Position numbers and translations under genes: made by a program | Sequence record: PZ256263.1 | Length of the DNA stretch: 64,000 nt | Reading direction: 5' to 3' (one strand) | DNA from: a phage | In this document: positions 16,625 to 17,240 of the stretch, in pieces | Layout: each line of letters begins with the position of its first letter | How positions within the stretch are numbered: the stretch's first letter is position 1 | The notes under the pieces: model-generated | Seen by the model: the letters and a program-made list of their open reading frames with translations, nothing else | Databases searched by the model: none | Told to the model about the DNA's origin: nothing

Positions 16625-16822
16625 ATGAAAAAGTGGATTGTTCGTGTACATGATAACACGACTGGAGAGTTAGTAGCTGTAGATTTTGTTAAGACTCGAG
16701 AACACGCACGTAGGGTCAAAAATCAATACAAATCTACTTTTAGACTTAATAAGGTTACACTAGGAAAAGCTATCGTGAATAGTGAAGGTGCTTTTTGTGT
16801 TAACAGTAAGGTTTATTATTAA
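16625..16822 (+). CDS. small protein, tandem paralog family B (1 of 3)
   Basis: Track ORF 65 aa ending ...KVYY; overlapping stop/start with next copy. Confidence 0.55.
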   Translation: MKKWIVRVHDNTTGELVAVDFVKTREHARRVKNQYKSTFRLNKVTLGKAIVNSEGAFCVNSKVYY

Positions 16823-17031
16823 TGAGACCAATCACCATGAGACAATTTTGGTTAGCAAAGATTAAGTGGGCATCAGGTGGCATGACTATGACTGCACTAC
16901 CCACTCGCCAACAAGCTCGAGATTTTAAAAAGACTATGCTTACTGGTGACGTGGTCAACAGTATCAGTATCCATAAGGCCAAGGAGTATTCTTCTGGTCG
17001 TGTTTATATCAGCGGAAAGGTACATTACTAA
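16822..17031 (+). CDS. small protein, tandem paralog family B (2 of 3)
   Basis: Track ORF 69 aa ending ...KVHY; shared W...ARxxKK...S..V.Y pattern. Confidence 0.55.
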   Translation: MRPITMRQFWLAKIKWASGGMTMTALPTRQQARDFKKTMLTGDVVNSISIHKAKEYSSGRVYISGKVHY

Positions 17032-17240
17032 TGAAAAAGATGTGGGCTATTCATGTTGTTTGGGATCTTGAGCAACACACGAGAAAAGATAACATCAAAT
17101 TGTTTGACACTCGCAAAGAGGCTCGTATTGCTAAGAAACAGTTGAAGACTCTGGGCACAATAGTAAAAAGCGCTGACATACATCGCTGGTATGAAGACCC
17201 TAACACTGGTTCTTTTATGTCTAAAGTAATTTACTACTGA
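17031..17240 (+). CDS. small protein, tandem paralog family B (3 of 3)
   Basis: Track ORF 69 aa ending ...KVIYY. Confidence 0.55.
   Translation: MKKMWAIHVVWDLEQHTRKDNIKLFDTRKEARIAKKQLKTLGTIVKSADIHRWYEDPNTGSFMSKVIYY

Follow-up and report, generated by a model that had tools for sequence, protein, structure and literature searches.

The window, by which we mean the whole 64,000-nucleotide stretch of phage DNA analyzed here (record PZ256263.1), carries three consecutive small open reading frames on its + strand: gene A (16625..16822; 65 aa, pI 10.1, net charge +8), gene B (16822..17031; 69 aa, pI 10.6, net charge +9) and gene C (17031..17240; 69 aa, pI 9.8, net charge +6), with coordinates and lengths confirming those of the first-pass annotation. 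They are flanked on one side by a dCTP deaminase gene (dcd, 16091..16624, +), a homologue of phiEco32 gp72 that is recognized both from the annotation of phiEco32 and XT18 and from a Pfam DCD match with E=5e-34, and on the other by a homologue of phiEco32 gp68 (17313..17639, +) that matches phrog_10984 ('unknown function') with E=1.8e-62. The 3 kb around the triplet match ∼98 phage genomes in GenBank at 80-99% identity, the matching phages being podoviruses of Escherichia and Shigella that belong to the Gordonclarkvirinae, Kuravirus and relatives (phiEco32-like), and as judged from its sequence the window belongs to a Kuravirus (phiEco32-like) phage. The triplet DNA itself (616 nt) is 100% identical to that of phage ev_rybdy3 and 93.7% identical to that of phiEco32, and the A, B and C proteins are 91%, 88% and 97% identical to gp71, gp70 and gp69, respectively. 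Gene order (phi32_71, phi32_70, phi32_69), lengths (65/69/69 aa) and position between dcd and gp68 are the same in phiEco32, establishing A-C as the orthologous triplet, and we find no substantive difference between the two sets. All three genes are annotated as 'hypothetical protein' in phiEco32 and are already catalogued as such in GenBank and PHROGs; a full-text literature search returned no paper that names phi32_69/70/71 or gp69-71, and no published account of mutual paralogy among gp69-71 was found. An HNH-type homing endonuclease ORF (164 aa, window 17636-18130) lies between the gp68 homologue and a Dps-like gene. It is missing in phiEco32, where gp67 directly follows gp68, is present and annotated in XT18 and Bas94, and explains why, when the 3 kb were compared, most relatives were covered to 82-84%.

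That the three genes are paralogues had been proposed by the first-pass annotation from their lengths and from shared motifs. An N-terminal W, a helix start T-R-x-x-A-R-x-x-K and a C-terminal Y are present in each of A, B and C. In a pairwise test, local alignment scores were compared with those of 2000 shuffles, giving z-scores of 8.7 for A-B and 9.6 for B-C, with only a weak value of 2.0 for A-C directly. A profile was also built for each type solely from its own orthologues, and in the profile-profile comparison all pairs match over their full length, A-C with 97% probability (E=1.2e-10), A-B with 96% (E=1.3e-9) and B-C with 98% (E=2.8e-14), so that by formal alignment the mutual similarity is significant (E 1e-9 to 3e-14). 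All three proteins are, in addition, members of phrog_4939 (PHROGs v4, 'unknown function') at E of about 1e-27, with residues 1-65 of A aligned to profile positions 2-67 of 67 (E=1.2e-27), residues 6-69 of B to positions 1-67 (E=6.8e-28) and residues 1-69 of C to positions 1-67 (E=8.3e-28). Pairwise statistics, profile-profile comparison, a common PHROG and the matching AlphaFold topologies described below all uphold the paralogy. No DNA-level repeat between the copies remains, indicating that the duplications are old, and a family HMM detects no fourth copy in the 64-kb window. These results show that A, B and C are genuine coding genes, derived from a single small gene by tandem duplication long ago; an array of this kind, formed by small early paralogues in tandem, is an ordinary feature of a phage genome.

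AlphaFold2 models were calculated for A and B from family alignments. The model of A (pLDDT 93.1, pTM 0.79) has strands at residues 2-9 and 16-22, a helix at 25-38 and strands at 43-51 and 57-59, and that of B (pLDDT 81.7) has strands at 7-16 and 21-26, a helix at 29-40 and strands at 45-55 and 61-67. The shared fold that the first-pass annotation had suggested looking for by structure prediction is thus found, both models having the same topology, predicted to be beta-beta-alpha-beta-beta; each of the three genes encodes a strongly basic, single-domain protein of ∼8 kDa, and in the predicted fold a beta-hairpin is followed by a helix of 12-14 residues and a second beta-hairpin. The helix of the predicted fold begins at the invariant T-R-x-x-A-R-x-x-K motif. 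BFVD models of A-type and C-type proteins and of homologues from the 7-11 group superpose on the B model with TM values of 0.6-0.84.

Conservation was evaluated over 27 diverse members of the family with identities down to about 25%. In this set the Trp in strand 1 is invariant, as is T-R-x-x-(A)-R where the helix begins; the Lys after the helix-start R is near-invariant and a C-terminal Tyr is found in most members, and the signature of the family can be written W ... T-R-x-x-A-R-x-x-K-K ... I-H-K/R ... Y-COOH. All 27 members are strongly basic (pI 9.7-10.9, net charge +6 to +12), a property to be read with the knowledge that 26% of the small ORFs in the window likewise have a pI of at least 9.7, so that a high pI is not rare.

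Searches of domain libraries gave little. Pfam-A contains no family for A or B and gives for C only a sub-threshold match to LEA_3a (E=0.21), the Pfam scans of the 27 diverse members reveal no common family, and NCBIfam has no match for A-C. A possible resemblance to DUF2188 and to HicB-type 'T-x-E-A' helices is unsupported by the Pfam scans, and the one sequence-profile match in the PDB, a 20-residue hit with E=0.11, is spurious. Foldseek searches of BFVD return only uncharacterized proteins, from the same phage group and from the 7-11/GAP52 group, together with weak scattered matches. In the corresponding searches of the PDB the top structure for both the A and B models is PsaD, subunit II of photosystem I (best E 0.012-0.021), with nothing at E<=0.001 for either model. 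The beta-hairpin/helix/beta-hairpin core of PsaD superposes with query-normalized TM values of 0.55-0.58. The superpositions span TM values of 0.46-0.58 on the query and 0.2-0.4 on the target, with E of 0.01-0.1, an rmsd mostly of about 7 Å and 8-18% identity. A PsaD-like fold, taken as E<=0.001 with TM>0.5 in both normalizations, is rejected on these values. PsaD is twice as long as A or B and has no biological connection to them, and we regard the resemblance of the models to it as topological only.

The first-pass annotation had noted that each stop codon in the triplet overlaps the next start, and this is the case at A/B and at B/C, each pair sharing one base within a TAATG. The stop codon of A (TAA 16820-16822) overlaps the ATG of B (16822-16824) and that of B (TAA 17029-17031) overlaps the ATG of C (17031-17033). 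At the A/B junction (16807..16824, +) the sequence TAAGG (16807-16811) in the Ser-Lys-Val codons of A precedes the TAATG at 16820-16824, and in the B/C junction island (17001..17033, +) GAAAGG (17015-17020) in the last codons of B (YISGKVHY) precedes the TAATG at 17029-17033; at both overlaps AAGG is located 10 nt 5' of the ATG, within Lys-Val codons of the upstream gene. The upstream copy ends in ...(S/G)-K-V-x-Y-stop in every relative examined, with the DNA reading AAGGTnnAnTAnTAATG. The A/B layout is the same in XT18, phiEco32, EP335, KBNP1711 and a metagenomic relative, and the sequence of the B/C junction is identical in the window, EP335, KBNP1711, EK010 and ECBP2. Gene C ends ...AAAGTAATTTACTACTGA without an AAGG, and no gene is coupled downstream of it. 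[quoted passage not shown]

Within UAAGGAGGU, the perfect Shine-Dalgarno sequence in E. coli SD-anti-SD pairing, UAAGG matches the 5' half, and with this match the aligned spacing is near the optimum. Among the 67 same-strand junctions in positions 1-34000 of the window 26 overlap (39%), 4 of them by one base, a frequency at which the overlap by itself is not distinctive. The other one-base pairs in this region are solely 1391-1624/1624-1866 and 20296-20499/20499-20828, the first of which (77 and 80 aa) may be the other paralogue family of the first-pass annotation. Junctions of the TAATG/ATGA type are well known from coupled genes such as E. coli trpE-trpD and trpB-trpA and from many phage operons. 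Coupled genes of the trp-operon type combine a 1-base overlap with an SD-like element in the upstream coding sequence, exactly the combination found at both junctions here; the present case differs in that the SD resides in conserved Lys-Val codons of a paralogue and in that the coupling is predicted from sequence. It is reasonable to infer, as had been suggested, that B and C would each be translationally coupled to the preceding copy. Ribosomes terminating or re-initiating at TAATG would then translate B and C, their initiation aided by the AAGG in the C-terminal Lys-Val codons of the preceding copy, and, since this SD lies inside the C-terminus of a paralogue, each copy would bring with it the ribosome-binding site for whichever copy follows.

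The starts of B and C are uncertain. An in-frame ATG is found at 16837 in B, some orthologues of which are 64 aa long without MRPIT, and C has an alternative ATG at 17040. In XT18 (L001 3945-3962) the AAAAA run that follows TAATG is longer by one A, which shifts the overlapping ATG of C out of frame, and C is annotated there from this internal ATG (MWAIRV...), the sole in-frame start. The insertion is either a real variant with a dispensable MKK N-terminus or a homopolymer sequencing error.

Promoters for the phiEco32 sigma factor gp36 have been mapped upstream of genes 6, 13, 26, 40, 58 and 68, with the consensus tAATGTAtA (PMC8948821, PMC4331800). The P68 element of the window, AAATGTATA (17265..17273, +), matches this consensus 25 nt after gene C, and an element upstream of gene 68 is kept in all relatives examined. 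The motif WAATGTATA occurs 6 times in the window vs 1.28 expected, with 0/100 shuffles reaching six. A-C are thus positioned immediately upstream of the P68 motif, the first gp36-dependent promoter. In the SU10 paper CDS 69-125 are classed as early and CDS 25-68 as middle, by homology to phiEco32 (PMC4281155), and the temporal class that we give A-C derives from this secondary source and from the position of the motif. No terminator-like site was found after C and sigma-70-like sites are not enriched near the triplet. From the P68 motif, the published classes and the lack of a terminator, A-C would be the last cistrons of an early unit transcribed by the host RNAP, in which the gene order is primase/helicase, DNA polymerase exonuclease subunit, nucleotidyltransferase, dcd, A, B, C; the P68 element would sit where the middle genes begin and hence where the early unit with A-C ends.

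A hairpin is predicted around P68 (window 17256-17314, arms 17256-17264 and 17306-17314; MFE -20 kcal/mol, z=-3.2), in which AUAACUCUC, just 5' of AAATGTATA, pairs with GAGAGUUAU in the Shine-Dalgarno/start region of the gp68 homologue. Its conservation was established by duplex folding of each sequence separately, the stem being kept in all relatives with at least 4 arm pairs: TAACTCTC/GAGAGTTA, TCACTCTC/GAGAGTGA, CTTCTCT/AGAGAAG and AAATACCCTC/GAGGGTATTT. The differences between the arm sequences are compensatory changes. RNAalifold applied to a MAFFT alignment of the intergenic region gave no structure, the 3' arms being misaligned, and Rfam contains no RNA family that matches in the window. 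Transcripts started at P68 would be without the 5' arm while early read-through transcripts would have it, making a stage-specific role of the hairpin possible; it may block translation of gp68 on early RNA only, or it may be a processing or stability element.

The family to which A-C belong is tiny and is found in phage sequence only. When 5.8 billion proteins were searched with a word index, 92 clusters were obtained, each 64-87 aa long and assigned to an A-, B- or C-type group. An HMM search run exhaustively over 1.84 billion representative proteins gave only 24, single-domain and 65-82 aa in length bar one artefact, P0110 (648 aa), which is a low-complexity repeat protein and was rejected as a spurious match. 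No bacterial or archaeal copy was detected in GTDB with B as the query (one genome per species), three single-protein scans of IMG/VR gave no matches, and tblastn of distant members against the GenBank phages yielded nothing new beyond the Kuravirus group. In the matching GenBank phage records a B-type gene is present in 99/99, a C-type in 94 and an A-type in 65, so that B is universally present with A and C optional, and the presence of B in all of the genomes argues that its role is core and not dispensable.

Relatives carry from 1 to 4 copies per genome, in two genomic slots. In the slot bounded by dcd and gp68 there are 1-3: LAMP has B only, at the dcd junction that A occupies in the window, relative L007 likewise has a single copy, EK010 and ECBP2 have B and C, as does ES17, in which an HNH gene and other small ORFs replace A, and in a divergent metagenomic relative there are again three copies, which overlap and are 67, 82 and 71 aa long. 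Between thioredoxin and thyX lies another slot with 0-2 additional, more distant copies, occupied in many phages of the Kuravirus group (L001 6507-6710, L018 8001-8204, L014 7771-8213, L010 4933-5368). It is empty in the window (19211-19227), where thioredoxin (18936-19211) is followed by thyX (19227-19883), and empty in phiEco32 too. Salmonella phage 7-11 (L013, NC_015938) has a single distant member, an apparently unannotated 73-aa ORF, MSKVQWEVHFVYSYGFEMKSIHKTRAEARAHKKNIL..., at locus positions 949-1167 on the minus strand (record about 40948-41166), matched by the family HMM with E=5.5e-6. This ORF is not beside dcd; its position is between gp054 and gp055, with a partial overlap of the latter as annotated. 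T4-like phages have hyperplastic clusters of small ORFs among their nucleotide-metabolism genes, and the slots described here resemble them in that small, variable and poorly characterized ORFs are scattered among dcd, thioredoxin and thyX and in that genes, HNH endonucleases included, are gained and lost; on neighboring small ORFs in relatives Pfam detects T4_Y13H and Phage_T4_Y13I. Unlike the T4-like clusters, the slot here is filled mainly by one family, of which B is universally retained.

The three genes diverge much faster than their neighbors. Their dN is typically 5-10x that of dcd and gp68 for the same partner genomes, and in the comparison with EP335 it amounts to 0.47 for B and 0.29 for C vs 0.04 (dcd) and 0.07 (gp68), dS being similar. 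Values of dN/dS relative to close relatives range from 0.08 to 0.46 (0.29 for A vs gp71), and A, B and C are fast-evolving yet under purifying selection. Relative to the metagenomic relative A, B and C are 27-34% identical where dcd is 86% and gp68 91% identical, and gp68 retains 88-100% amino acid identity across relatives in which A/B/C fall to 27-57%; the gp68 homologue is the conserved edge of this variable slot on its downstream side.

The divergence is also mosaic. Nucleotide identity between EP335 and the window is 90-97% over A, 33-57% over B and 37-83% over C. In EP335 a 92%-identical A stands beside a 46%-identical B, and KBNP1711 shares with the window C (93-100% nucleotide identity) and not A and B, its 97%-identical C adjoining a 51%-identical B. 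A sliding-window comparison with EP335 and KBNP1711 reveals an island of 97% nucleotide identity at the 3' end of B (17001-17030), and from the mosaic divergence together with this 30-nt island the breakpoints are placed at the gene junctions. At the level of sequence comparison these patterns show whole genes to have been exchanged between phages, with breakpoints at the conserved junctions. The C-terminal codons are conserved at the nucleotide level and so offer an obvious homology patch for exchange or for precise loss of a copy, and the same junction sequence that would serve initiation would serve as such a patch in the shuffling of cassettes; the B/C junction island is probably both a recombination anchor and a ribosome-binding site. 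Some C-type proteins of other phages (P0079, P0082, P0083, P0088 and P0089) carry alternative C-terminal segments, and one C-type end (…EFSGNRGSYISGDVHY) resembles the C-terminus of the B type (…EYSSGRVYISGKVHY), which suggests recombination between paralogues besides that between phages.

Taking the observations together, we lean, if not strongly, toward an explanation in which A, B and C are old tandem paralogues at the end of the early operon that would be produced by coupled translation and would bind nucleic acid. The functional element, taken by itself, is more tentative: binding of phage or host DNA, or of RNA, is a proposal to which we give somewhat less than an even chance. Favoring it are the universal positive charge and the basic helix residues that remain invariant even at 25% identity, as well as the universality of B and the placement of the genes among those of replication and nucleotide metabolism. 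Binding would make use of the conserved basic helix and of the overall positive charge, the proteins would act early, alongside the replication and nucleotide-metabolism genes, and the paralogues would differ in target preference and not in basic activity. Sso7d/Sac7d, HU and phi29 p6 are small, basic architectural nucleic-acid-binding proteins to which A-C are analogous in their 7-8 kDa size, high pI and early or abundant-type context; no relationship in sequence or fold to any of these was found. Counting against nucleic-acid binding, Pfam, NCBIfam, PDB and Foldseek searches provide no link by homology or fold to a known nucleic-acid-binding domain, and the invariant W/T/R/A/R residues could be structural, through helix capping or core packing, rather than in contact with a ligand.

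The main rival, in our view rather unlikely as the full explanation, is that A-C are inhibitors used in host takeover or anti-defence that bind host proteins, the conserved motif serving only to maintain the fold; the paralogues and divergent alleles would then be an arms-race repertoire in which each member neutralizes a different host target or variant. Host-interaction and anti-defence genes are more often the ones associated with fast divergence, varying copy number and shuffled alleles, and the present family combines small size and early expression, as indicated by motif position and the SU10 classes, with a dN 5-10x that of the flanks, divergent alleles shuffled independently at each position, 1-4 copies per genome and A and C genes that are polymorphic for presence. 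It is, moreover, confined to one lytic enterobacterial phage group, with none in the bacterial genome scan, and in relatives homologues of the neighboring nucleotidyltransferase give weak or faint matches to Pfam Gad2 (anti-Gabija). These matches are at L017 3539-4759 and L018 3810-5153, homologues of window 14711-16081; for the nucleotidyltransferase of the window itself Gad2 gives no match at E<=0.1, and only a sub-threshold match to the PolyA_pol head domain (E=0.002) is obtained. A B-type gene in 99/99 genomes and a C-type in 94 would, however, be unusual for accessory counter-defence genes, the high positive charge and invariant basic residues of exposed type persist at 25% identity, and dN/dS is well below 1, with no positive selection seen at this resolution. 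In the libraries searched there was no match to described anti-defence proteins.

Less probable still in our view, and unlikely, is a further reading. The family would be a class of fold not described before, made up of early phage proteins and housed in a self-shuffling cassette array, in which the conserved module that ends each copy, namely C-terminal codons, SD and TAATG, drives both translation of the next copy and crossover, and in which the independent swapping of divergent alleles at three positions would match varying host targets, defence or nucleoid proteins for example.

That A, B and C are subunits of a hetero-oligomer, with tandem order and overlaps providing a fixed stoichiometry, strikes us as quite improbable. 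The A-B-C order and its overlaps are conserved, the B/C junction is identical across lineages, B and C occur together in 94/99 genomes and, from sequence and secondary structure, hydrophobic residues would be found on both faces of the predicted sheets, all as might be expected of such an assembly. It is disfavored by the existence of phages with one copy (LAMP, L007) and with two and by the independent assortment of A, B and C alleles, which is unexpected for co-evolving interfaces, and AlphaFold gives confident, self-contained monomers for A and B (pTM 0.63-0.79). Finally, the notion that the three are chance open frames or dead remnants with merely compositional similarity, for which short length and the absence of a functional annotation are the only arguments, is refuted, and retains next to no probability, in the face of profile E-values of 1e-9 to 3e-14, ORFs that remain intact in metagenomes and in the genomes of about 100 phages, purifying selection on A/B/C and confident structure predictions.

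What emerges is that three 'hypothetical protein' annotations in about 100 genomes of the Kuravirus group become one defined family, for which the fold is predicted with confidence, a signature motif can be given, two slots in the genome are known and modular exchange follows a clear pattern. To what was catalogued we add a formal proof of paralogy, the distinction between a universal B and optional A and C, and a junction module that would unite the conserved C-terminus, SD, stop/start overlap and recombination anchor. PhiEco32-like phages have been isolated for therapy against pathogenic E. coli, and if A-C were indeed nucleoid- or RNA-binding proteins, or counter-defence proteins, this would extend the short list of phiEco32-like early functions that are understood.
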